From Candidatus Thorarchaeota archaeon (GTDB lineage Archaea; Asgardarchaeota; Heimdallarchaeia; Hodarchaeales; Hodarchaeaceae): a stretch of DNA of 32,000 nucleotides. Every line of letters starts with the position of its first letter. Position 1 is the stretch's first letter. The notes under the pieces are model-generated. The model saw only the letters and a program-made list of their open reading frames with translations, was not told where the DNA came from and did not search any database. The DNA is taken from assembly GCA_048882505.1 (NCBI GenBank), contig JBHLRO010000006.1, positions 133,640-165,639 on the forward strand, written 5' to 3'. Both the position numbers and the translations under genes were made by a program. Shown in pieces: positions 383 through 29,468 of this stretch.

Positions 383-1414
383 ATGCAGGTTTCAAAACCA
401 TTATCGAATATACATACAGAAGAGGAACTGGAGGCTGAGGCCAATCGATTATATGGTAAGTTAAAGTCATTGAATTGGGGATGGGAAGAGTGCGCCCTAA
501 TTGCGCCCCAAACGTTGGCTATTAATGAACTTAAACAACAAAAAAATGCCATCATATTGGCACATTCCTATCAGAAACCCCAGATTATATTCGGCGTTGC
601 CGATTTTGTTGGAGACAGTTATGGTTTGAGCAAAGAGGCAATGAAAACTGAAGCAGATATCATTGTCTTTGCCGGTGTCCGATTTATGGCGGAAACTGCG
701 AAGCTGCTAAATCCAAACAAAACCGTTCTTCTTCCGTCGCTCGAAGCAGGATGTTCATTGGCTGAAGGAATTCAACCACAAGACGTTCGACGATTAAAAG
801 AGCAATATCCTGGAGTACCTGTATTAGGTTATGTAAATACAACCGCCGAAGTCAAAGCTGAATGTGATGTCTGTTTTACCAGCGCTAACGCGTTACAGAT
901 CATAAACAGTTTAGAGACTGATCAAGATACAATCATTGTCATACCTGATAAGTACATGGCTAAAAACCTAGAAGAATCGACTGGAAAAAGAATTATCGGA
1001 TGGGATGCCGAATGTATTGTTCACAACCAGTTTACTTCAGAACAAATCGAATTCCTGCGAGAGCAATATCCAGACATACAAGTATTGGCCCATTCAGAAT
1101 GTGATCCTTCGGTAGCCTTGCAGGCTGATTTGGTTGGAGGGACGGGCGATATGATCCGGTTCGTAAAATCCACAGAATATCGAAATTATGCCTTAATAAC
1201 TGAATGTGGGCTCTCGGAAAGACTACGTGTTGAATTTCCCGAAAAAAACTTCGTGGGCAGCTGTGTGATGTGTCCCTATATGAAAACTGTTTTCCTAGAG
1301 CGCATTTTCAATGTTCTCCATTTACCCAGCCCCTCTCATATCATTGAAATCCCAGATAAGGTTCGGCACCGAGCAAGACAGAGTCTCGATAGGATGTTTG
1401 AACTCTCGAGGTGA
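383..1414 (+). CDS. nadA: quinolinate synthase A ([4Fe-4S])
   Basis: LAHSYQ, DFVGDSYGL, FMAETAKLLNP, YVNT motifs; three cluster cysteines in GCSLA, CIVH, CPYMK. Confidence 0.97.
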   Translation: MQVSKPLSNIHTEEELEAEANRLYGKLKSLNWGWEECALIAPQTLAINELKQQKNAIILAHSYQKPQIIFGVADFVGDSYGLSKEAMKTEADIIVFAGVRFMAETAKLLNPNKTVLLPSLEAGCSLAEGIQPQDVRRLKEQYPGVPVLGYVNTTAEVKAECDVCFTSANALQIINSLETDQDTIIVIPDKYMAKNLEESTGKRIIGWDAECIVHNQFTSEQIEFLREQYPDIQVLAHSECDPSVALQADLVGGTGDMIRFVKSTEYRNYALITECGLSERLRVEFPEKNFVGSCVMCPYMKTVFLERIFNVLHLPSPSHIIEIPDKVRHRARQSLDRMFELSR

Positions 1415-1426
1415 GGCCCCCTCACC
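1410..1426 (+). promoter_or_regulatory. 7-bp hairpin GGTGAGG-ccc-CCTCACC covering the nadA stop and nadC Shine-Dalgarno
   Basis: Perfect inverted repeat ending at the base before the nadC ATG (1427); the left arm holds TGA 1412-1414 and most of GAGGTGA. Confidence 0.55.
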
Positions 1427-2287
1427 ATGGCATATCTTCCCTCCAAACTCCTGGAGCAACGACTTCTCAGGTTCCTTGAGGAGGATTTAGAACTTGGAGA
1501 TGTTACGGTAGAGTTCATTCCCAATAAGAAAGTAAAAGCTGGTATCATTGCGAAAGAAGAAGGAATAATCTGTGGGACACGTTTTGCTGCCATCATCATG
1601 GAGGCCGTTGGCATTAATGTTGTTGAAAAATGGGAAGATGGCAGCCCCGTGAAAACAGGGGACATTGTCTTGAATCTTGAGGGGATGAGTAAGGATATTC
1701 TTACTGTAGAGAGGACCATTCTAAACCTAATCATGAGACTGTCAGGTATTGCAACACTCACCCACAACCTGGTAAATCTTGTAAACCAGTCTGGTTTGGG
1801 GATTCGAATTACTGCCACTCGTAAAACAACACCTGGTTTTCGATATTTTGAAAAGTACGCGGTCAAGATAGGAGGAGGAGATACCCATCGATGGGGTCTT
1901 TCTGATGCAGTACTCATAAAGAAGAATCATCTATCCTTGTTCGATAAAGATCCAATTCCTAGCGTTCTTAACGGTATTAAGACTCAGGCTTCCTTTTCCA
2001 AGAAAATCGAAATTGAAGTTGAAAACAATACGCAATTAGAAAAGGCCCTAGAATTCCGTCCTGATATCATTATGTTGGATAATTTCAATCCTGAAGCAAT
2101 CGGTGAAGCAATTCGTATCGTGGAAGGCCACTCTCACCGCTCTCGTCCAGTCATCGAAGTATCTGGTGGGATTACAGAAGATAATATTGTTCAATTTCTT
2201 ATCCCTGGGGTAGATATTCTCTCAATGGGATTATTAACTCATTCCGCCAAAGCCTTGGACTTTTCCTTATTGATCAACGCCCCTTAG
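1427..2287 (+). CDS. nadC: nicotinate-nucleotide pyrophosphorylase (quinolinate phosphoribosyltransferase)
   Basis: LSGIAT, TRKTTPG, EKYAV-GGG-HR, IEVE, IMLDN, EVSGGI, GLLTH motifs; directly follows nadA. Confidence 0.97.
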   Translation: MAYLPSKLLEQRLLRFLEEDLELGDVTVEFIPNKKVKAGIIAKEEGIICGTRFAAIIMEAVGINVVEKWEDGSPVKTGDIVLNLEGMSKDILTVERTILNLIMRLSGIATLTHNLVNLVNQSGLGIRITATRKTTPGFRYFEKYAVKIGGGDTHRWGLSDAVLIKKNHLSLFDKDPIPSVLNGIKTQASFSKKIEIEVENNTQLEKALEFRPDIIMLDNFNPEAIGEAIRIVEGHSHRSRPVIEVSGGITEDNIVQFLIPGVDILSMGLLTHSAKALDFSLLINAP

Positions 2288-2330
2288 TCTTGTACTGGAT
2301 AATATGCCTACATCTGTAGAATGTTATTAC

Positions 2331-3530
2331 CTATATTATGTTGTTTTTTTTGAAATGAGCTAGCTCGGATTCCTTATAGCCTAATAGATCACAGAGAATT
2401 TCCCTGTTATGAACCCCGAGCTCTGGAGCTGGTGTGGTAAGTTTTCCTGGTGTGCGACCATAGCGAATGATTGGATTTGGTATGGTGGCTTTGAGAACTC
2501 CGTATTTTGAAAAGTCAAAGTTTGAATTTAAAGTTCCTCGGGCTTTAAGCTGCGGATGATCTCTGACGTCGTCGATAGTCTGAACCAACCCGCAGGGTAT
2601 TCTCTGACTTTCCAATTCTCGAAGTGCTTCATCTTGTGTTTTGTTTTGTGTATATTTGGTCACAATTTCATCCAGTTCCTCCACGTAATCAAAACGTTTG
2701 ATCGGAGTGTCGAATCGCTTATCGTACTTTAATTCCGGATTATTTAACACATTGTCGCAGAATCGATACCATTGAGGCTCTGTGAGAACCACTATGGCAA
2801 TCTTTCCTCCATCTTTCGTTGGATATTGATTGTAGATGGGTAAAATTCTAGATACATCATTAAGCTTTGAGGCTCTTGTTAAAAATTCCTTTGCATGCGC
2901 TCGAAGGTTAATTGCGTACATGATATCTTGCATTGATAAATCGATCAATTGACCATTACGTGTTCGTTCCCTATAGTATAATGCGGAGGCAAGTGCGATT
3001 GCTGCAACATGACCAGCACTGTAATCAGCAATGGGAAGGCCTGGAGCGTCTTTGACTCGCATCGAATCTAAAACTCCACTTGCGGCCTGGGCAATAAGGT
3101 CAAATGCTGGTTTTGCAACATATCGGTCAATCCCCGTACGTCCAAAACCACTTATCGACACGTAAATTAGATCTGTTTTGATTTGCTTTAACTGCTCATA
3201 TCCTAGTCCCCATCTCTCCATGGATCCAACAACTAAGTTGTCCACGACAGCATCAGAGATCTTTACCAGACGTCTAAAGATCTCTTGGGCTTCGGGTTTT
3301 CGTAAATTGAGAGTAACGGACCTCTTGTTGTTATTCAAAATAGAGAATAGAGGAAAGATCTCTGGATCAAAGAAAGAATAAAGCCTAAAAGTATCTCCAA
3401 ACTGGGGTGTTTCTATTTTAACTATATCCGCACCTTGATTTGCAAAGAATGTTGTCGCCCACGGACCACTTATGAAGTTACACACTTCAATAATCCGAAT
3501 ACCTTCAAATATTTGCATTTTCAGTCCCAA
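2331..3530 (-). CDS. CaiB/BaiF family (class III) CoA transferase
   Basis: GP-A-GADIVKIETP-GD-R, NNNKRS-LNL, FDLIAQAASG, catalytic Asp in ADYSAG, APELGVHN. Start is TTG 3530 or ATG 3518. Confidence 0.93.
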   Translation of the reverse strand: MGLKMQIFEGIRIIEVCNFISGPWATTFFANQGADIVKIETPQFGDTFRLYSFFDPEIFPLFSILNNNKRSVTLNLRKPEAQEIFRRLVKISDAVVDNLVVGSMERWGLGYEQLKQIKTDLIYVSISGFGRTGIDRYVAKPAFDLIAQAASGVLDSMRVKDAPGLPIADYSAGHVAAIALASALYYRERTRNGQLIDLSMQDIMYAINLRAHAKEFLTRASKLNDVSRILPIYNQYPTKDGGKIAIVVLTEPQWYRFCDNVLNNPELKYDKRFDTPIKRFDYVEELDEIVTKYTQNKTQDEALRELESQRIPCGLVQTIDDVRDHPQLKARGTLNSNFDFSKYGVLKATIPNPIIRYGRTPGKLTTPAPELGVHNREILCDLLGYKESELAHFKKNNII

Positions 3531-3693
3531 TTTTATCTGGAATTGTAGAATATCTCTAAATTTTGGTAGAAATTATTATGTTGGAGCAAGTCAATCTCTA
3601 TAGATTTTTGGCGCCCTATATGGGCCGTGGTTGATGGTCAACACTTTTGAATTTACCGGTTTTTTTTAATTTTGGAGCTAGAACAACTCTACA

Positions 3694-5382
3694 GTGGAAA
3701 AATTGGCCTGGACAAGCATCATCACAATTATAGCCTTTATTACCAGTGTCTTCCTTTGGATATACGATCCTAAAGGGGAAAAGATACCTGAAAAAATAAT
3801 CCTTCCTGTTATTGGTATCACAGCGATTCTAATGGTTGCCAGTCTCCTTTTCATTGCACCACCATCGGCCTTTACCTATGTTCACACTCAAATTCTCATA
3901 GTTCTCATATTCATTGTCGTTTTCGGCTTCCTGACCTTGGCAGAGGAGGATAAACTTAGGGTTATCTTGTTTGGTGCAACCATTGCCGTATCGGTAACCA
4001 TAATTTTTCTTCCGAACCTACTGCCCTTGGACTATCTAGGCGGGCTCTCTACCGATGCATTGGAAAATCTGACCTCAGAAGATTTGGAACATGCCATTGG
4101 TCGGAAACCTCCGCTTTCAATCGAGCAGCTCAAGGAAATCTTGGAAAATCCCAGTCTTTTCTTTGAAATCGCCCTCTTTAGCTCGTTTATTGAGTGGGAG
4201 GTGATTAGTATCGTATTTGGCATGAGCTTACTCGTCGCCGTATTATCTGATACAGGACTCTTTGACATGGTCTCAATTAGAACAATTAAGGCATCTCAGG
4301 GTGTTCCCCGACGATTTTTGATCCTTGTATTTTTCCTTACCTTGGTCTTATCGGCATTACTTGATAATACAACAGCTATAATACTGATCAGTGGCATTAC
4401 GATCACTATAACTCGTGGTTTGGATCTCAATCCAAAACCATACATCCTGGCGGAAGTTTCTGCAACAGTCATGGCTGGAATTATTACAGTTATCGGATCA
4501 TTACCTGGAATTCTTATCGCATCCCCGAATGCAGGTAACATCCCCTTTGCTACGTTTTCCATTGTGAACTCTGGATTAATCATTGTTTCAGTGATCGTCT
4601 CCCTGGCTTATCTCTTTTTAATCTTTAAACAAGAGCTAACAATCCCCCAGACCGCAGGATTCGATGCTAGCGCACTAAACCTCTTGGATGAATGGTCAGT
4701 AGTTGAGTCTCCCCGAAATCTATATGCTGGTTCGGTCGTGATGGGGATTGTAGTCATGGGGTTAGTTTTTTCTAGCCTAATAGGGCTATCAGTGGGATTT
4801 GTTGCCATTACTGGAGCCATTCTCGCGATAGTCGTGACTCGAGCGAATTTAGAACATGTTCTGCATCGTGTGGAGTTGGAAGGTATTCTCTTCTTTATGG
4901 GTCTATTCATTCTGGTAGGTACCTTACAATTATCAGGAGCTTTGGAAGTATTCGCACAGATGATGCTGGAATGGTCAGGTGGCAATCCACTGATCTTAGC
5001 CTTGGTTATCATCACTTTAATCTCCATATTGTCCGCCATTGTTGCAAATATCCCGATTACGATTGCCCTAGCTGAAGTCATTAGTATATTGCTGTCAGAT
5101 CCTATTTTCAGAGCTAATACCGTGTTCGGATTTCCAGTGGGCGGCTTTTTGTGGTTTACTCTGTTGTATGCTGTTACATTCGGAGGAGGATTCACGCCAT
5201 TTGGAACAGTAACAGGGGTAATTGGTGTTCAGGTTCTTTCACAGGAAGGCCATCCTGTGACTTTTATGGATTTTGTGAAGAAGATGGCACCATTGAGTGT
5301 AATCTTACTAACATTAGGTTTTATCTATCTCCTTGTACTCCAATTTTTAGGGATTTTAGCCATCTTAATCCCCCCCTCGTGA
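3694..5382 (+). CDS. ArsB/NhaD-like (IT superfamily, SLC13/P-protein type) permease with N-terminal membrane extension
   Basis: IEWEVISIVFGM, DTGLFD, LSALLDNTTAI, VELEGILFFMGLFILVG, SAIVANIP, GGGFTPFG; many hydrophobic helices; GTG start. Confidence 0.8.
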   Translation: MEKLAWTSIITIIAFITSVFLWIYDPKGEKIPEKIILPVIGITAILMVASLLFIAPPSAFTYVHTQILIVLIFIVVFGFLTLAEEDKLRVILFGATIAVSVTIIFLPNLLPLDYLGGLSTDALENLTSEDLEHAIGRKPPLSIEQLKEILENPSLFFEIALFSSFIEWEVISIVFGMSLLVAVLSDTGLFDMVSIRTIKASQGVPRRFLILVFFLTLVLSALLDNTTAIILISGITITITRGLDLNPKPYILAEVSATVMAGIITVIGSLPGILIASPNAGNIPFATFSIVNSGLIIVSVIVSLAYLFLIFKQELTIPQTAGFDASALNLLDEWSVVESPRNLYAGSVVMGIVVMGLVFSSLIGLSVGFVAITGAILAIVVTRANLEHVLHRVELEGILFFMGLFILVGTLQLSGALEVFAQMMLEWSGGNPLILALVIITLISILSAIVANIPITIALAEVISILLSDPIFRANTVFGFPVGGFLWFTLLYAVTFGGGFTPFGTVTGVIGVQVLSQEGHPVTFMDFVKKMAPLSVILLTLGFIYLLVLQFLGILAILIPPS

Positions 5383-23802: not shown

Positions 23803-24165
23803 TTGGTTGAAAACTTAGAACAGAAAAAAAAATCGTTAATATCTTGGGACGATTTTCAAAAAGTGGATATTCGGGTAGGTACTATAAAGGATGTTCAGGA
23901 TTTCCCCGAAGCCCGAATTCCTGCCTTCAAACTATGGATCGACTTCGGATCGCTTGGTATCAAGAAATCAAGTGCCCAGATTACTCAGCTATATACGAAG
24001 CGGTATTTGATCGACCGCCAGGTCTTAGCGGTGGTGAACTTTCCCAAAAAGCAGATTGCTAATTTTAGATCGGAGGTACTTGTATTGGGTCTGGTTGCGG
24101 AAAATAAAGAGGTAGTTCTGATTTCTCCAGATCGGCCTGTACCCAACGGATTAAAATTGGCCTAG
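23803..24165 (+). CDS. csaA: CsaA / tRNA-binding OB-fold chaperone
   Basis: WDDFQKVDIRVGTI, AFKLWIDFG-G-KKSSAQIT, VVNFP-KQIA-F-SEVLVLG, PVPNG. Confidence 0.88.
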   Translation: MVENLEQKKKSLISWDDFQKVDIRVGTIKDVQDFPEARIPAFKLWIDFGSLGIKKSSAQITQLYTKRYLIDRQVLAVVNFPKKQIANFRSEVLVLGLVAENKEVVLISPDRPVPNGLKLA

Positions 24166-24252
24166 CCGTCCATCTCGATAAGCGGGCGACTCTAAAATGA
24201 GAAAAAGAAGAGAGCAGGATCGCTAAACGTGATCATGCAATCTTGAGGAAAA

Positions 24253-24825
24253 TTACTTTTTCCTTCTCTGGACTAGGGCCAGGCTAGCAATGATTAAAAG
24301 ACCAATCGCTAGTTCGAACCCAGGCGCTGGAGTACCAGGAGGATTCCCAGTCGGGTTACCCACTTTGAAATAACCCCACATCCCTGCATCGAAATGTCCT
24401 GAAAAGGAGCAGTAAAACATGATATAGGTGTCCTTATCGGGAGTTGTAAAGGTCGTGTTCCAAACACTTGTTTCTGTTCCCCCTGAGTTGCCTGTATTGG
24501 CTTCAGCGGGAAGAGGTCCTAGTACCAGATCCCCAGACTTTGGTGTGTCTGATGCAGTTGCTGAGGTTACTATCCGTTCGTCTGCCGCCACTATCAAATT
24601 ATGCCATACACCTGATTCATTGTTCCAGAATACTATTGTGTATTGTGTGTTCTTCTGTACGTCTATGGCCTTCTTATCATACAGAGTACCAGTAAGGGCC
24701 GTAATTGTGATTGTCGTCCCTTGAGTGGGTGTATTTGTTGTAGCCGAGAGATTTAGGGGAACGATTATAGATAAGAACATTATCCCCGTAAATAAGGCTA
24801 GTAAGATAACTCCTTGTTTTTTCAT
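24253..24825 (-). CDS. secreted type-1 blue copper protein (cupredoxin) with PGF-CTERM-like anchor
   Basis: Signal peptide; VWHNL (His ligand); FYCSFSGHFDAGMWG (C-x4-H-x4-M); tail PAPGFELAIGLLIIASLALVQRRKK. Confidence 0.85.
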   Translation of the reverse strand: MKKQGVILLALFTGIMFLSIIVPLNLSATTNTPTQGTTITITALTGTLYDKKAIDVQKNTQYTIVFWNNESGVWHNLIVAADERIVTSATASDTPKSGDLVLGPLPAEANTGNSGGTETSVWNTTFTTPDKDTYIMFYCSFSGHFDAGMWGYFKVGNPTGNPPGTPAPGFELAIGLLIIASLALVQRRKK

Positions 24826-25112
24826 GATATATCAATCCCATTTAGAGGTAGACTCTTTACCATTTATAGTCGTAGAAGTCGGCGTCCGTTTCTTCTTTTT
24901 ATTTATAAATTGGTTTCTTTTTTTTTTTCACAGGAAAATTGTTCTGGTGGCTGATCCGATCCGTTTTTCGAAAACCGATCCTCACTTTACCAGCAAATCC
25001 CCTATCTAATTAACCTCCCTTTATGTCCAGAGAGAAGAGAGACAGGATTTACTATATCTAATGTGGTAAGAACAGTTTATGGGTTATTGGTATAACCAAT
25101 GGATTCAATTGA

Positions 25113-25133
25113 TAAAAAAAAGAAAAAGGGGGG
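25113..25133 (-). terminator. U-rich putative terminator after the polyferredoxin gene
   Basis: The minus strand reads CCCCCCTTTTTCTTTTTTTT about 10 nt after the stop. Confidence 0.45.
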
Positions 25134-25143
25134 AATTAGGGGT

Positions 25144-27393
25144 TTAAACCTGGCTCGATAATGCATAGAGTCCCAAGAACGTGAAAAGAACAATCCAGGT
25201 CACTACTGGGACCAATATCTTGAGACGATCTTTTTTATCGTGCTCCAAGTTCAATATTAGGGTTCGATGCGTGGCGAAAATCGAAGCAGCCATTCCACCA
25301 AGAACTGCGATCAACCGGATAGCAAAGCCCGCCTCGGCTGGTATTAGGGATCCTAGTTCCAAGTTATGGAAACCTATCAAATATAATGGATTTAGTAGGT
25401 AAGCTATCGCGACCGGGAAGACAATAGGATTGTCAAGAGCCAGCGTGCTTCCATTATAGATTGCATTATTCATGAAGTATCCGCCAAATGGATCTGCTAG
25501 GATACCAAGAATTGCGGGAGTATGTTCGAAGATCCTTACCACCCAAAATGCAAAGTGGAGTGAGAGTCCGACTGGAATCACAGAATAGCTAAATAGGTTG
25601 AATAGATCTTGGACATTTTTCTTTTTCTCGTTCTTCACATATTTTCTAGTGAACAATAAAACTAGAAAGAATAGGCCTATAGGCAAGAGAAATGCCGCTG
25701 TCAAGAACCAGGCGAATGTTGTGATAACCTGTGCAATGAATGCATCACCAAATACCCCGGTAAGCCCAGCGATTGACGAGTCTAAGGTGGTACGAACAAA
25801 AGGTATACTTGGCATGATTACCGCTAAGGTTAAGCCGACAAGCACCGCCGCCAGACCAGATTGATCAAATCGTCGTTTTTTCGGATTGTACGTGTCTACG
25901 AATGGTGCACGAATATTTAACGTAATGTTGTCATACGGACAGCTCTTAAAACATTCGGTACACATAATACACCCAAGGTTTCGATCCATGATCATTGGAA
26001 ACTGTTCCATTGGACATGCGTATCCGCTATCCCATGTTGGAACTGTCAATTTTCCCTTTCGATCCAGAACTTCAGTCTCTGTACGTCCACGAAGGCAGTA
26101 TTTCCCCGTACACAGCTTACATACATCTAAATCCTTGTTACGGACTTCAATGGTTCCTGCCATTCCGTAGGTTCCGATCAATCCTCCCAGCGGGCAGACG
26201 TACATACAGAACGCCCGACGTTCGTAGAATAGTCCTAGGATAATTGATAGCCCTATAAGAATGACTATGAAGAGAGCCGTGAAGAGTGGATTGACAAACA
26301 TACCAACAATAAAATCAAACATCATGATGCCTGCAAAGAGGCCTGTTGTGATCCACATGGAGGTCAGTCTCTTGGGATATTTACGTTTTGGATCCGTATC
26401 TCCCTTCAATGGTTTTCCAATAACCATAGCTTGCGTAAACTCTGGAATAGCGTAACCGAAGTACGCTCCAACGTAGAGCCCGAAGAGAATTGCCAAGAGC
26501 CAAAAGATTCCAACTATGGTATCGATTATCCCTGTACCCGCGACTATTGTTGTAAAAACGCGTGATAACAAGACCACGGGGACAAATGCTAAGAAGATAA
26601 GATAATCAAGGATTCCTTGAACCAAATCCGTACTGATGGCTCCAGTTCCCATTAATTCCTCGGCAGAAAGTCCTCCAAACAATCCAATGGTAATGCCCAC
26701 AATCAATGCACTGCCAACTCCTAGGAAGAAAGCCATTACAAAACGAATGATTCGGCCCGAGGTTGAAACAGATTCTGGCAGGTGGGTTCTATGGGCCCAT
26801 TCGCCAATACAACCGAGTGGACATACCGTACACCACACACGGCCAAGAAACATGAACGTTATAATCATGCCTGGCCACCAGATGTTCCAGGTCAGAAATG
26901 TGGCACCATTAATTAACGCCGAGTCTTTTGCATAAATGTAACCGCCATATCCGTATATACCGAAGATCATTACCAGGACAAAGAATACGGCATTAGGAAA
27001 CTCTAACACCCATTGAAACCAACGACGTTTGATTAGCCAGCTTCCAAACCGATTATCGGTCAATGAAAACTTCCAGTATCCACCAAATCGACGTTTTTCC
27101 AAGGATTCCTTATCATCAGGGGAGCGGTACAGGAGAAACAAGGTCAAACCCGCAAAAAGAGCGGGTAGGACGAGCGTTGGAAGGAGCGTATTGGCTATTA
27201 GGCCACCAAGATCTCTGCCAAGCAATCCAATGAGATCGAATCCAAAGAATGAAATAGTGTCTTTTAACATGTACAGACTCAGATACGATACCCATACTAA
27301 TGCAATGACGAAGATTAGGAGCGAGAAATTCTTTGAGTTTTGCCCTCTTAGTTGAGCAAAGGTAGCGTCTTCTGACGTTACTTCTTTTTGCAT
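25144..27393 (-). CDS. integral membrane polyferredoxin (4Fe-4S binding; NapH/MauN/NosR/CcoG-like)
   Basis: RVWCTVCPLG and RAFCMYVCPLGG (CxxxCP), CKLCTGKYC, ACPMEQFP, CIMCTECFKSCP; many TM helices. Confidence 0.88.
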   Translation of the reverse strand: MQKEVTSEDATFAQLRGQNSKNFSLLIFVIALVWVSYLSLYMLKDTISFFGFDLIGLLGRDLGGLIANTLLPTLVLPALFAGLTLFLLYRSPDDKESLEKRRFGGYWKFSLTDNRFGSWLIKRRWFQWVLEFPNAVFFVLVMIFGIYGYGGYIYAKDSALINGATFLTWNIWWPGMIITFMFLGRVWCTVCPLGCIGEWAHRTHLPESVSTSGRIIRFVMAFFLGVGSALIVGITIGLFGGLSAEELMGTGAISTDLVQGILDYLIFLAFVPVVLLSRVFTTIVAGTGIIDTIVGIFWLLAILFGLYVGAYFGYAIPEFTQAMVIGKPLKGDTDPKRKYPKRLTSMWITTGLFAGIMMFDFIVGMFVNPLFTALFIVILIGLSIILGLFYERRAFCMYVCPLGGLIGTYGMAGTIEVRNKDLDVCKLCTGKYCLRGRTETEVLDRKGKLTVPTWDSGYACPMEQFPMIMDRNLGCIMCTECFKSCPYDNITLNIRAPFVDTYNPKKRRFDQSGLAAVLVGLTLAVIMPSIPFVRTTLDSSIAGLTGVFGDAFIAQVITTFAWFLTAAFLLPIGLFFLVLLFTRKYVKNEKKKNVQDLFNLFSYSVIPVGLSLHFAFWVVRIFEHTPAILGILADPFGGYFMNNAIYNGSTLALDNPIVFPVAIAYLLNPLYLIGFHNLELGSLIPAEAGFAIRLIAVLGGMAASIFATHRTLILNLEHDKKDRLKILVPVVTWIVLFTFLGLYALSSQV

Positions 27394-27409
27394 AAATTTT
27401 CCACCTTTA

Positions 27410-28060
27410 TTATGCTGTTGTTACTGTTACAAATCCGTTCATCTGCCCATGCCCAAGTCCACAGTAGAAGTTGCAAGAGAAGAGATGGTTGCCGATTTGA
27501 TCAACCGTGGGTTTTGCGTAGAATGATATCTCTTTTAGCTGTGGTAGATTCAGTACGACAGGATTACCAAAGTAATCTTGGAAGGTTGGGACGATTTCAA
27601 AACCGTGATCTGTATCAAGTGCCTTGATTATAATTTGGTATACGGTGCCGACCTTGAGGTCGATGTTGTAATATGCTGCCGTCTCTGGATAACCCACCCC
27701 TTCAGGAATTGTTTCGTACTTGGATACGTTTATCGGAATGGATTCCTCGGTCGTGGCATTTTCAATGCGTGTGACGTTAAAGGTCCACGGTTTGAGCTGT
27801 GCTTCAACGTGTATGACGTAATCTATTGGCTCGTCTGGTACTTCTGTTCCTAGGTTACTTAATAGGAGATTCGGGGTAATTCCCATAGCCCCACCTAGTA
27901 ATATTCCGCTTAGCAAAGCGGCTGGCACTAAAACGACTATAATCTCCTTCGGTTTCCAGGAATTTCGAATCGCTGCTACTAGGACACCAATGATTAAGAG
28001 GCTAGATAGTATCAGGAGCAAAATGTTATGATCTAGCGGTATCCAGCTGGTTTCTGACAT
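27410..28060 (-). CDS. membrane-anchored CuA cupredoxin (cytochrome c oxidase subunit II-like domain), stand-alone
   Basis: Two N-terminal TM helices, AQLKPWTF, DTDHGF, SCNFYCGLGHGQM (complete H/C/C/H/M CuA ligand set). Confidence 0.85.
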   Translation of the reverse strand: MSETSWIPLDHNILLLILSSLLIIGVLVAAIRNSWKPKEIIVVLVPAALLSGILLGGAMGITPNLLLSNLGTEVPDEPIDYVIHVEAQLKPWTFNVTRIENATTEESIPINVSKYETIPEGVGYPETAAYYNIDLKVGTVYQIIIKALDTDHGFEIVPTFQDYFGNPVVLNLPQLKEISFYAKPTVDQIGNHLFSCNFYCGLGHGQMNGFVTVTTA

Positions 28061-28162
28061 TTTTTTTCCTTCTCTATAACGACTGTTTAGACTGGTTGAC
28101 TTCGGTTAGGCATCCTCTGAGGGATTTACAGTTGTTATTACATACGAGTCCCCAATGAATTA

Positions 28163-28187
28163 TCACAACAAAAGTATTACGTTGTGA
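28163..28187. promoter_or_regulatory. inverted repeat TCACAAC-N11-GTTGTGA, putative operator
   Basis: Perfect 7-bp arms in the divergent intergenic region between the CuA gene and DUF1786. Confidence 0.35.
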
Positions 28188-28355
28188 ATTCAGGATTCCT
28201 AATTTAAGAAGACTAAATCCGAATTCTTTTCGAGATATTTAAGGTCACCGTGAATCTTATCGTATTTCTCTTCTATGCGGAATTACGTATGTATTTCGTT
28301 TGGAACTCCAATAAAAATAAGTAGCGGCTCAAATAATTATGTTATTGACCTAGAA

Positions 28356-29468
28356 ATGTTGAATTTACATGAAAGAGTTTTGGCAATTGATGTAGGTAAG
28401 GGGACGGAAGATATTTACCTCTTTGAACCCCACCAAAATCTCGAAAACGGAATACACGTCATTCGTCCATCACGAGCATACCTTCTCAGAAAACAGCTAG
28501 ATATGCAGCTTCGAGGGTTGACTAATCTCTATTTTCATGGTACAATAATGGGAGGGGAACCGTGGCACATTCCTCTCTATAAAATAGCCCAAAACCCAAA
28601 TCGAAAAGTCGTCATGACTTCAAGATCTGCCAAATCCCTAAGATATAAGCTTGACCAGGTAACTTCTCGCGGTGTTATAGTACAGGATCCACTCCCCAAA
28701 ATGGATGAAAACAGTAAAAGGATTGAAACCTATGATATCGACTTTGAATGGATAGATCAGTTTTTTCGCGGATTAGATATAAACATTTTTGAAACCACAC
28801 ATGTTCTACTCATTGCGTGCCAAGAACACGGCTATCCTGGCCCTGAACCCATTTCTGTGCGTCAATTCCGAATCCAGGAAATGTACCAACGTTATCTTGA
28901 AAAGCATCCCTATCTAGAGTCTTTAATGTTCCATCAAAACGAAATTCCTAAATTTGCATGGCGATTTCAGGCTAATGTTGAACGGGCTCGACAGTACTTT
29001 CCAGGTGCTCAGATATTCGTTATGGATTCCTCACCGGCAGTTATATTAGGAAGTATGCTGGATCCTATAATTCCTTCTGGAGCTAAAACCATTATCAATC
29101 TTGGTAACGGACATACTCTTGCAATGGTTCTAAGCAAGTCCTGGGAGGTTCTGGCCGTATGGGAACACCATACTGGGCAATTTCGATCTAATCCTACGGG
29201 ATTAGATGAGTACCTGGAAAAATTATTTACCTCTCAATTAAATCAGGAGTTCGTCTTGGAACACGGCGGGCACGGGTATTATCAACGCATAACAAAGATC
29301 CCCGAGTCCGCCGCAAAGCAAATCCTAGCTATTGGTCCAAATAGATCCCTTTTGCAGGATTCTCGGTTTAAAGATGCTATTTCATGGGTTCACCCTCTTG
29401 GTAGCATGATGTTGGCTGGCCCTGCTGGATTACTAAAGACCTATGAAGCTAGAATCAAAAAAACATGA
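28356..29468 (+). CDS. DUF1786 family protein (ASKHA/actin-like ATPase fold)
   Basis: VLAIDVGKGTEDI, G-IMGG, QEHG, VMDS-PAVILG, INLGNGHTLA, WEHHTG, GGHG; probable start ATG 28356 rather than 28275. Confidence 0.82.
   Translation: MLNLHERVLAIDVGKGTEDIYLFEPHQNLENGIHVIRPSRAYLLRKQLDMQLRGLTNLYFHGTIMGGEPWHIPLYKIAQNPNRKVVMTSRSAKSLRYKLDQVTSRGVIVQDPLPKMDENSKRIETYDIDFEWIDQFFRGLDINIFETTHVLLIACQEHGYPGPEPISVRQFRIQEMYQRYLEKHPYLESLMFHQNEIPKFAWRFQANVERARQYFPGAQIFVMDSSPAVILGSMLDPIIPSGAKTIINLGNGHTLAMVLSKSWEVLAVWEHHTGQFRSNPTGLDEYLEKLFTSQLNQEFVLEHGGHGYYQRITKIPESAAKQILAIGPNRSLLQDSRFKDAISWVHPLGSMMLAGPAGLLKTYEARIKKT

Follow-up and report, generated by a model that had tools for sequence, protein, structure and literature searches.

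What does a CuA protein do when no oxidase is encoded next to it? To our knowledge, CuA centres are known in two enzyme types only, the heme-copper oxidases with their NO-reductase relatives and nitrous oxide reductase. The question is raised by a 32,000-nt stretch of DNA (hereafter the window; contig JBHLRO010000006.1, positions 133,640–165,639 of the forward strand, assembly GCA_048882505.1) from Candidatus Thorarchaeota archaeon, a Heimdall-group Asgard archaeon of the Hodarchaeaceae. Here a gene for a CuA protein (P0001) is directly followed by one for a membrane polyferredoxin (P0002) and then, at some distance, by one for a blue copper protein (P0003). The locus lies on contig C6 of the genome, referred to as G000, which is 4.3 Mb in size and 94.55% complete. 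The pair formed by the first two genes and its conservation in relatives are solid, and the family is undescribed in the literature that we searched (searches on polyferredoxin, CuA and cupredoxin returned no description of the pair). For its function we favour a NapH/NosR-like, quinol-linked membrane module with a CuA exit that feeds blue copper and then an A-type oxidase, a reading that we hold to be about evenly balanced between right and wrong.

The three open reading frames (ORFs), which the first-pass annotation had listed as co-oriented genes, are all open on the minus strand of the window. The gene for P0001, a CuA-type cupredoxin with an architecture like that of COX subunit II, spans positions 27410–28060 (216 amino acids (aa) in the ORF translation). 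A spacer of 16 nt (27394–27409), as had been noted, separates it from the gene for P0002, a Fer4_5/NapH-like integral-membrane polyferredoxin of 749 aa (25144–27393). Because this spacing is so tight, co-transcription of P0001 and P0002 is implied.

P0001 starts with two helices (residues 11–33 and 37–58) followed by a β-sandwich in the AlphaFold2 (AF2) model (pLDDT 73.7), in agreement with the two transmembrane (TM) helices first assigned to it. The C-terminal motif reads C-N-F-Y-C-G-L-G-H-G-Q-M, and the CuA ligand set H152, C196, C200, H204 and M207 is invariant in an alignment across 6 homologues. The pattern CxxxCxxxHxxM was found in 3 of the 11,405 ORFs of ≥70 aa in the whole genome, all three in cupredoxin contexts, and it is therefore no chance motif. 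A Foldseek search with the P0001 model returned COX subunit II chains and NosZ CuA domains at the top (E 3e-7 to 5e-6), and the family profile had its best match among PDB sequences in the CuA domain of Thermus ba3 (4.9e-6). Judged by the COX2-like helices, and by the signal peptide and C-terminal anchor seen in some homologues, the CuA domain is predicted to be extracytoplasmic.

Like CoxB and the CuA subunit of the Thermus thermophilus ba3 oxidase, P0001 combines two N-terminal TM helices and a cupredoxin with the ligand pattern H...C-x3-C-x3-H-x2-M. Unlike CoxB, it is not encoded beside subunit I, it has a polyferredoxin neighbour in seven loci, and the Pfam COX2 model is blind to it: no Pfam family matched P0001 at E≤0.01, PF00116 included, and a scan of the genome with PF00116 matched proteins on contigs C17 and C22 only. 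The score against the NCBIfam aa3 CtaC model was 18.5 bits (cut-off 250). The cupredoxin domain is also longer than that of subunit II, with an inserted segment in the alignment. In CoxB a Mg-binding Glu (A-type oxidases) or Gln (ba3) between the two cysteines lies at the interface with subunit I, where P0001 has a Phe and its relatives have Tyr, Arg, Thr or Val. The first-pass annotation had remarked on this Phe in place of the oxidase Glu, but in a wider comparison it is nothing special. The CuA motif is present in 146 of the best 149 profile matches and a Glu stands between the cysteines in only one of them, so Phe at the Glu position follows the rule for CuA-motif cupredoxins outside oxidases; in Thermus ba3 the residue is a Gln. 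Within the P0001 family the position is taken by F, Y, R, T, V or S, and never by E or Q.

There is no oxidase subunit I gene in the window, as had been stated, and the only COX1 of the genome is found on C17. It belongs to a complete coxB-coxA-coxC-coxD cluster, whose CoxB has the motif C-A-E-M-C and shares 24% sequence identity with P0001. We considered P0001 as the CoxB of this oxidase and rejected it, as the cluster has its own coxB, the identity is low and Pfam COX2 misses P0001. The possibility of a canonical CoxB whose coxA lies elsewhere in the genome had been raised; coxA does lie elsewhere, but beside its own Glu-bearing coxB. P0001 is an oxidase-less CuA protein and not a stray CoxB. 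The other CuA-related partners reported absent from the window, NosZ and nitrite reductase, were likewise not found there, which removes NosZ and NirK as candidate partners inside it. A search of the whole genome with the NosZ propeller model was blank, but its positive control was silent too.

The CuA gene stands directly upstream of the polyferredoxin gene in seven loci. These are the loci of G000 and of its sister genome G016, two paralogous loci in G023, which represents another family of the same order, and single loci in L046 (from a Heimdallarchaeota metagenome-assembled genome, MAG), L051 (from a sequencing-run assembly) and L062, where only the first 75 codons of a gene similar to the N-terminus of P0002 precede the contig end. 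The two proteins of the pair are 93% and 95% identical between G000 and G016, and across all pair loci the identities go down to 35–37% for the CuA protein and 50–59% for the polyferredoxin. The two genes are 11–28 nt apart (16 nt in G016 and 23 nt in L062), with an exception of 70 nt at G023:C395. A test of synteny had been called for, and its outcome is that the adjacency is kept across divergent relatives. At the nucleotide level, the three copper and Fe-S protein genes and the upstream spacer are 91–92.5% identical between G000 and G016, compared to 85–88% for the flanking CsaA and DUF1786 genes (window 23803–29468 against L013). The spacer below the blue copper gene has 78% identity, and the 318-nt spacer above it has 89.6%, about equal to the coding regions. 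CsaA and DUF1786 have no common neighbourhood in the other genomes of the genus.

Some further genes were seen around the pair of L051. A divergently oriented gene beside it (L051:587–1885, minus strand) encodes a protein of 432 aa in which three Cupredoxin_1 repeats (C-x2-4-H-x2-3-M) precede a C-terminal anchor. Downstream of the pair (L051:5000–7549, plus strand) are genes for a BlaI/CopY-family repressor and two BlaR1-like M56/M48 peptidases.

The pattern of conservation bears on the alternative that there is no functional unit at all. P0001 would then be a spare or decaying paralogue of subunit II, either serving the C17 oxidase or idle, and its position next to P0002 would be meaningless. 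Such a history would fit the fold and the ligand set, which are those of subunit II, the patchy distribution of the pair, and the presence in G023 of a degenerate paralogue without the His/Met ligands. Against it stand the adjacency, kept in seven loci at 35–40% identity and with gaps of 11–28 nt, the invariance of all five CuA ligands, and an oxidase that has its own adjacent coxB. The oxidase Glu or Gln is moreover never seen in the family, and the three genes are better conserved between G000 and G016 (91–92% at the nucleotide level) than their flanks (85–88%). We regard a meaningless adjacency as highly improbable.

P0002 matches Pfam Fer4_5 in two stretches (30 bits, cut-off 22) and has 12 invariant Cys residues. 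Four of these form a CxxCP motif (C188, C191) and a CxxxCP motif (C396, C400), and the other eight (C425, C428, C433, C460, C475, C478, C481 and C485) are predicted to ligate two [4Fe-4S] clusters in a two-cluster ferredoxin domain. The Cys motifs and the Fe-S domain are located in loops rich in Lys and Arg (18 K+R in the Fe-S domain) and are predicted to be cytoplasmic from hydropathy and K/R count. The K/R-poor loops, including a conserved K/R-free segment at residues 633–680, are predicted to be outside. The protein has ≈12–14 hydrophobic segments, an inserted region (205–338) and a long C-terminal membrane domain (AF2 model pLDDT 71.3). Conserved residues in TM helices are M357, D360 and H613. 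As H201 and H613 are the only invariant His residues in the family, a heme bridge with bis-His ligation is unlikely.

The first-pass annotation had compared P0002 with polyferredoxins of the NapH/NosR/CcoG type, and the likeness to NapH stands in the sense that all 13 full-length family members weakly match the NCBIfam NapH/MauN model TIGR02163, although even the best match (6.6e-11) is far under the cut-off. For P0002 itself the match (8.4e-11; 41.9 bits, cut-off 213) covers only the C-terminal half of the model. No CcoG/FixG model was matched by any of the 13 members in the NCBIfam scan, and NosR was matched weakly in one. On these matches P0002 is best described as NapH-like. Foldseek with the P0002 model found nothing among solved structures at E≤0.001 other than generic transporter helices, and its profile picked up ferredoxin-motif noise only among PDB sequences. 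The nearest ESM Atlas clusters consist of unnamed bacterial Fer4_5 proteins (≈510–536 aa) and can serve as leads only; the C-terminal domain alone scored <0.9 there. The genome encodes one other Fer4_5 protein, on C18, which is NapH-sized.

The closest functional parallels to the pair appear to be NosR/NosH–NosZ and NapH–NapG. P0002 shares with their membrane proteins the Fer4_5 core, the two Cys-Pro motifs at cytoplasmic helix ends and the two-[4Fe-4S] domain, and its predicted topology is that reported for NosR. As in the case of NosZ, the genetically coupled partner bears CuA on the outer face. There are also clear differences. P0002 lacks the FMN-binding domain of NosR (no FMN_bind match), and P0001 is a bare subunit-II-like CuA protein without the catalytic CuZ propeller of NosZ. 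With 749 aa and many more helices P0002 is much larger than the four-helix NapH (≈290 aa; models TIGR02163 and NF007013), besides scoring under the cut-off of its model. No NapG/NapAB or MauM partner is found in the window, and the genome search returned no molybdopterin oxidoreductase. By analogy, the module would work most like NosR/NosH–NosZ or NapH–NapG, its outer partner being a CuA protein of the subunit II type.

P0002 also resembles CcoG (FixG/RdxA), which is the only biochemically characterised member of the superfamily with a link to copper; it contains two Fe-S clusters and two Cu sites and reduces Cu(II) but not Fe(III) (PMC7558416). P0002 might thus be a CcoG-like cupric reductase, in which Cu(II) is reduced at the CxxCP and CxxxCP motifs and the Cu(I) is delivered to CuA or other cuproproteins, or in which the reduction protects against copper. 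P0001 would then be a client, or a partner in copper sensing or buffering. P0002 and CcoG do have in common the Fer4_5 membrane core, the two Cys-x-x(-x)-Cys-Pro motifs, the two [4Fe-4S] clusters and the link to a copper protein, and the conserved Met, Asp and His residues in its TM helices (M357, D360 and H613) count in favour of this reading. So do the BlaI/CopY-family repressor after the L051 pair and an ArsR/SmtB-type regulator gene located two genes upstream of the pair inside the window, and a paralogue of P0003 with a thioredoxin-like domain is encoded beside a CopA-type ATPase. On the other hand, NapH/MauN is the sole model that matches the 13 family members consistently, and P0002 has no FixG_C or other Ig-like domain, no cco/fix or cbb3 context, and extra membrane domains that differ from those of CcoG. 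Genes for a Cu-ATPase, CopZ, Sco or PCuAC adjoin none of the seven loci, and a maturation factor would be expected beside the real oxidase genes, which are elsewhere. A NarI fused in the place of the CuA gene within a nar cluster (below) also fits electron transfer and not copper supply. We consider a cupric reductase, the main rival of the quinol-linked module, unlikely.

The relative with the fused NarI is P0008 (L047:2–7494, gene at 1180–4101), a 973-aa fusion of an N-terminal NarI domain (Nitrate_red_gam) with a polyferredoxin orthologue (49% identity). The NarI part occupies the place where the CuA gene otherwise stands, and the fusion is found in a nar cluster, narH-narJ-[narI-polyferredoxin]-DOMON-Fer4_11-NrfD, in which narH is represented by its C-terminus and the Fer4_11 protein has a twin-arginine (TAT) signal. 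Two members of a polyferredoxin clade with 40–45% identity to P0002 (the LC_3 clade, 40% identical) adjoin the quinone-biosynthesis genes UbiA and UbiE. Shorter relatives of P0002 in G082 and G022 adjoin cupredoxins with a CuA motif, and the neighbour scanned, that of G082, matches Pfam Cupredoxin_1. Apart from these two, the short polyferredoxins (≈535 aa) of family f5 have uninformative neighbours such as zinc-ribbon proteins and a Na/H exchanger.

The CuA family itself is small. An exhaustive profile search of 1.84 billion protein representatives gave 11 matches at E<1e-30, and all members with a named source are from Heimdallarchaeota MAGs. A word-index homologue search with P0001 returned only itself, a scan of metagenome contigs with the CuA alignment gave 78 pattern matches and no relative, and the same scan of genome contigs found only the already known loci of G016 and G023. 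The nearest outgroup consists of small proteins resembling Cupredoxin_1 and COX2.

CuA-family members were also observed in other gene contexts. In two of them (L060:2494–6352 and L061:482–3965), two TM helices and the CuA cupredoxin are preceded by a DOMON-like domain at the N-terminus, which matches a Pfam-DOMON protein in BLASTP at 8e-12. In both loci the following gene encodes a 170–172-aa protein of no known family. After it, L060 has a gene for a GMC flavin oxidoreductase, and in L061 the contig breaks off within the next gene. Together, the DOMON-CuA protein and the GMC enzyme recall the domain logic of cellobiose dehydrogenase. In L063 (4617–10225), which comes from the same MAG assembly as the pair of L046, the CuA-family protein P0035 (202 aa) heads a cluster for a major facilitator superfamily transporter, a DOMON protein and a NarG-like molybdopterin oxidoreductase. 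Another member adjoins electron transfer flavoprotein genes. The degenerate paralogue in G023 (C250; L016:379–933, minus strand) is 184 aa long, retains both Cys residues and the upstream His but no longer has the downstream His and Met. It has no polyferredoxin neighbour, and the next gene is a 304-aa ORF of no known family. Judged by gene neighbourhood, all informative contexts of the CuA-family and polyferredoxin relatives are respiratory electron transfer and none copper trafficking. The NarI fusion, the UbiA/UbiE neighbours and the DOMON/NarG clusters were counted in favour of a quinol-linked module.

The third gene of the locus, for P0003 (24253–24825, minus strand; 190 aa), begins 318 nt downstream of P0002. 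The protein passes the Pfam cut-offs for Copper-bind (23.3, cut-off 21.2) and SoxE (21.3, cut-off 21), and both paralogues in the genome share its ligands H75, C139, H144 and M149. It is built of a signal/TM start, the cupredoxin, a Pro/Gly linker and a C-terminal anchor. The tail had been described as a PGF tail. The letters P-G-F are indeed present, but no PGF-CTERM model was matched; residues 166–190 instead match the NCBIfam Heimdall-CTERM model NF045529 (25.3 bits, cut-off 24), and a PGF-CTERM/archaeosortase A signal was for this reason ruled out. The description of P0003 as a surface-anchored type-1 (blue) copper protein holds.

The claim that the cupredoxin is the third gene of a linked module fares less well. 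An oligo-T tract, T5-C-T8, is found 17 nt past the stop codon of P0002 (25114–25127, minus strand), followed by two TATA-like boxes (24862–24909, minus strand) ≈80 and ≈40 nt ahead of the P0003 start codon. Oligo-T tracts act in archaeal transcription termination, and the tract is a candidate terminator that would close the two-gene unit, with the boxes as a putative promoter of P0003. The tract and the distal box are kept in G016, the proximal box is not. Because of the tract and the boxes that follow it, P0003 is probably a transcription unit of its own and a looser associate of the pair. Outside G000, it adjoins the pair only in the sister genome G016 (93% identity). The gene after the pair in G023 encodes an unrelated membrane protein, and L046 ends without a blue copper gene. 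A degree of linkage is still visible. G000 and G016, which both carry the pair, are the only genomes of the genus with a member of the P0003 family, and across the class this family tracks families f2 and f5, a suggestive trend among related genomes that are not independent. The anchored triple cupredoxin beside the L051 pair and the P0003 paralogue on C5 (below) also speak for a link. In G054 a P0003 homologue adjoins a heme-copper oxidase gene.

Other features were seen in the spacer and among the paralogues. A perfect 10-bp palindrome, TTTTCGAAAA, lies in the 318-nt spacer (24952–24981, minus strand) ≈150 nt upstream of P0003, flanked by GGATCGG / CGGATCGGATC repeats. It is near-identical in G016, with one mismatch in a flanking repeat, and could be an operator. 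On C5 (≈220260–226042; L074:8261–14043), the gene for one P0003 paralogue (212 aa) precedes genes for a double-DOMON protein of 576 aa, a Fer4_11 protein with a TAT signal and an NrfD subunit. This cluster is a candidate for a second quinol-oxidising module, a quinol:carrier oxidoreductase like alternative complex III. The third blue copper protein, on C11 (≈53738–57657; L075:5739–9658), combines the cupredoxin in one chain with a thioredoxin-like (AhpC/TSA) domain that has a CxxC motif, and it ends in an anchor. Its gene adjoins that of a CopA-type P1B ATPase with HMA domains, and the fusion may be a maturation factor for copper sites.

The rest of the genome provides a need for a module of the kind we favour: it encodes an A-type oxidase that has CuA as its entry point, and no cytochrome b was found in the 94.55%-complete genome with either PF00033 or PF13631, models whose controls do respond in archaea. 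A single small Rieske protein is present, as are two genes of the multicopper oxidase type, on C3. C22 encodes a 578-aa protein (≈38464–40200; L003:1126–2862, plus strand) with an N-terminal TM helix, a cupredoxin with the CuA motif C-G-I-F-C-G-R-D-H-A-A-M, which gave weak matches to Cupredoxin_1 and COX2, and a full cytochrome d1 heme domain (Pfam Cytochrom_D1, E 2.3e-61). Its domains suggest a cd1 nitrite reductase of the NirS/NirN type in which a CuA-type cupredoxin has taken the place of the heme c domain, and the protein is a possible acceptor for copper carriers.

The quinol-linked module could work as follows. P0002 would be a scaffold of the NapH/NosR type that has recruited a paralogue of subunit II, P0001, with no tie to subunit I left, and P0001 would display a binuclear CuA on the outside, where the conserved external loop of P0002 (633–680) would be available for docking of the CuA domain. 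The electron donor would most likely be the membrane quinol pool, as is thought for NapH and NosH, with the cytoplasmic Fe-S domain as an alternative source. Electrons would leave by CuA to extracytoplasmic copper carriers, for example the anchored P0003, by which the A-type oxidase (C17), at its CuA, or the CuA-cytochrome d1 protein (C22) could in turn be reduced. In this way the pair would act as a quinol:cupredoxin oxidoreductase where no cytochrome b was detected. The potentials of Fe-S clusters and quinol are usually below those of CuA and blue copper, and because of this the flow is expected to run from quinol and Fe-S to the copper centres. The analysis establishes the gene pair and its conservation, the cofactor ligands, the folds and the location of coxA on another contig; the formation of the complex, the quinol donor, the direction of flow and the identity of the acceptor we infer.

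The task proposed in this scheme is also that of NrfD/Fe-S modules like alternative complex III and of archaeal blue copper carriers such as sulfocyanin and halocyanin: electrons pass from quinol over a surface copper carrier to a CuA-bearing terminal oxidase in an organism that has no bc1 complex. The pair differs from them in having a Fer4_5 polyferredoxin in place of NrfD, no hemes, and CuA as the exit site.

Several observations weigh against the scheme. With the Fe-S clusters predicted to be cytoplasmic, the CuA outside and no His pair for heme, there is no visible chain of cofactors across the membrane, although such a gap in the electron path is likewise unexplained for NapH and NosR. 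This is a topology problem for the straight heme-free wire from quinol via Fe-S to CuA that had been suggested at the outset. The use of quinol is argued only by analogy, from a NapH score of 41.9 against 213 bits. The pair is present in 2 of the 22 genomes of the genus. A COX1 that passes the cut-off occurs in 9 others that lack the pair, which makes it an accessory route and not the general link to the oxidase in this lineage. The polyferredoxin clade of 40–45% identity has no CuA neighbour, and the blue copper gene lies behind the probable terminator and does not keep its place in G023 and L046. Modelling of the P0001–P0002 complex, another of the checks proposed, gave an ipSAE of 0.54 (best of 3 controls 0.00), which is graded as 'weak support': 58 of the 80 solved complexes used as reference attain the mark for ipSAE, as do 2 of the 110 mismatched pairs, with only 7 of the 80 and both mismatches at ≤0.60. 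The runs had ≥78% of contacts in common, and the partners a pLDDT of ≥72. Finally, the public sequencing runs listed for the locus are DNA runs only, one of them probably from the source sample, with no RNA run among them.

Electrons could also flow the other way. The outer copper proteins would then take them from an external substrate, be it Fe(II), Cu(I) or a reduced mineral, with the polyferredoxin as the membrane sink. This is the logic of FtrB and FtrD, the cupredoxin and polyferredoxin electron sink proposed for FtrABCD of Bordetella and Brucella, and the first-pass annotation had drawn the same analogy. A cupredoxin and a NapH-like polyferredoxin are encoded together here too, Pfam Cupredoxin_1 is the closest outgroup to the CuA family, and all copper domains are surface-exposed. 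The analogy found no local support. Neither an Ftr1 permease nor a protein of the P19/EfeO type adjoins any of the loci, and a genome search located the only Ftr1 on C3, beside a P-type ATPase and without a cupredoxin or polyferredoxin neighbour. P0001 also differs from the Ftr cupredoxin in its full binuclear CuA set and its subunit-II anchor. Transfer from CuA or blue copper, with high potentials, to low-potential [4Fe-4S] clusters would be uphill by established potentials, and we know of CuA solely as an electron relay and never as an oxidase of substrates. An Ftr-like or electron-uptake device is in our view quite improbable, more so than a cupric reductase. For extracellular electron transfer and metal oxidation in general, which had been suggested as roles, the evidence speaks neither for nor against. 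On scores, architecture and context the pair belongs to none of the CoxB, NapH, NosR, CcoG and Ftr groups.

A bolder form of the quinol-linked module is that the pair is a heme-free quinol:cupredoxin oxidoreductase, a stand-in for complex III that feeds an Asgard terminal oxidase via copper only. We put this forward tentatively, as possible and on balance doubtful. It would address a gap in the respiratory chain of these archaea: complex IV is present in 72 Heimdallarchaeia MAGs and complex III in only several new ones, and the surveys invoke cupredoxins or DOMON proteins as carriers while leaving the quinol-oxidising partner unnamed (PMC10307638; bioRxiv 10.1101/2024.07.04.601786). The present genome offers two candidates for that partner, the CuA-polyferredoxin pair and the NrfD/Fe-S/DOMON cluster, and both have a blue copper paralogue as neighbour. 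Since the pair is rare, its general importance is limited. The pair may also help with the unsolved mechanism of the NapH/NosR-type proteins, and if P0001 is a stand-alone electron exit, CuA would have a setting besides the two known enzyme types, and the pair would represent a new design for an electron outlet in a membrane.

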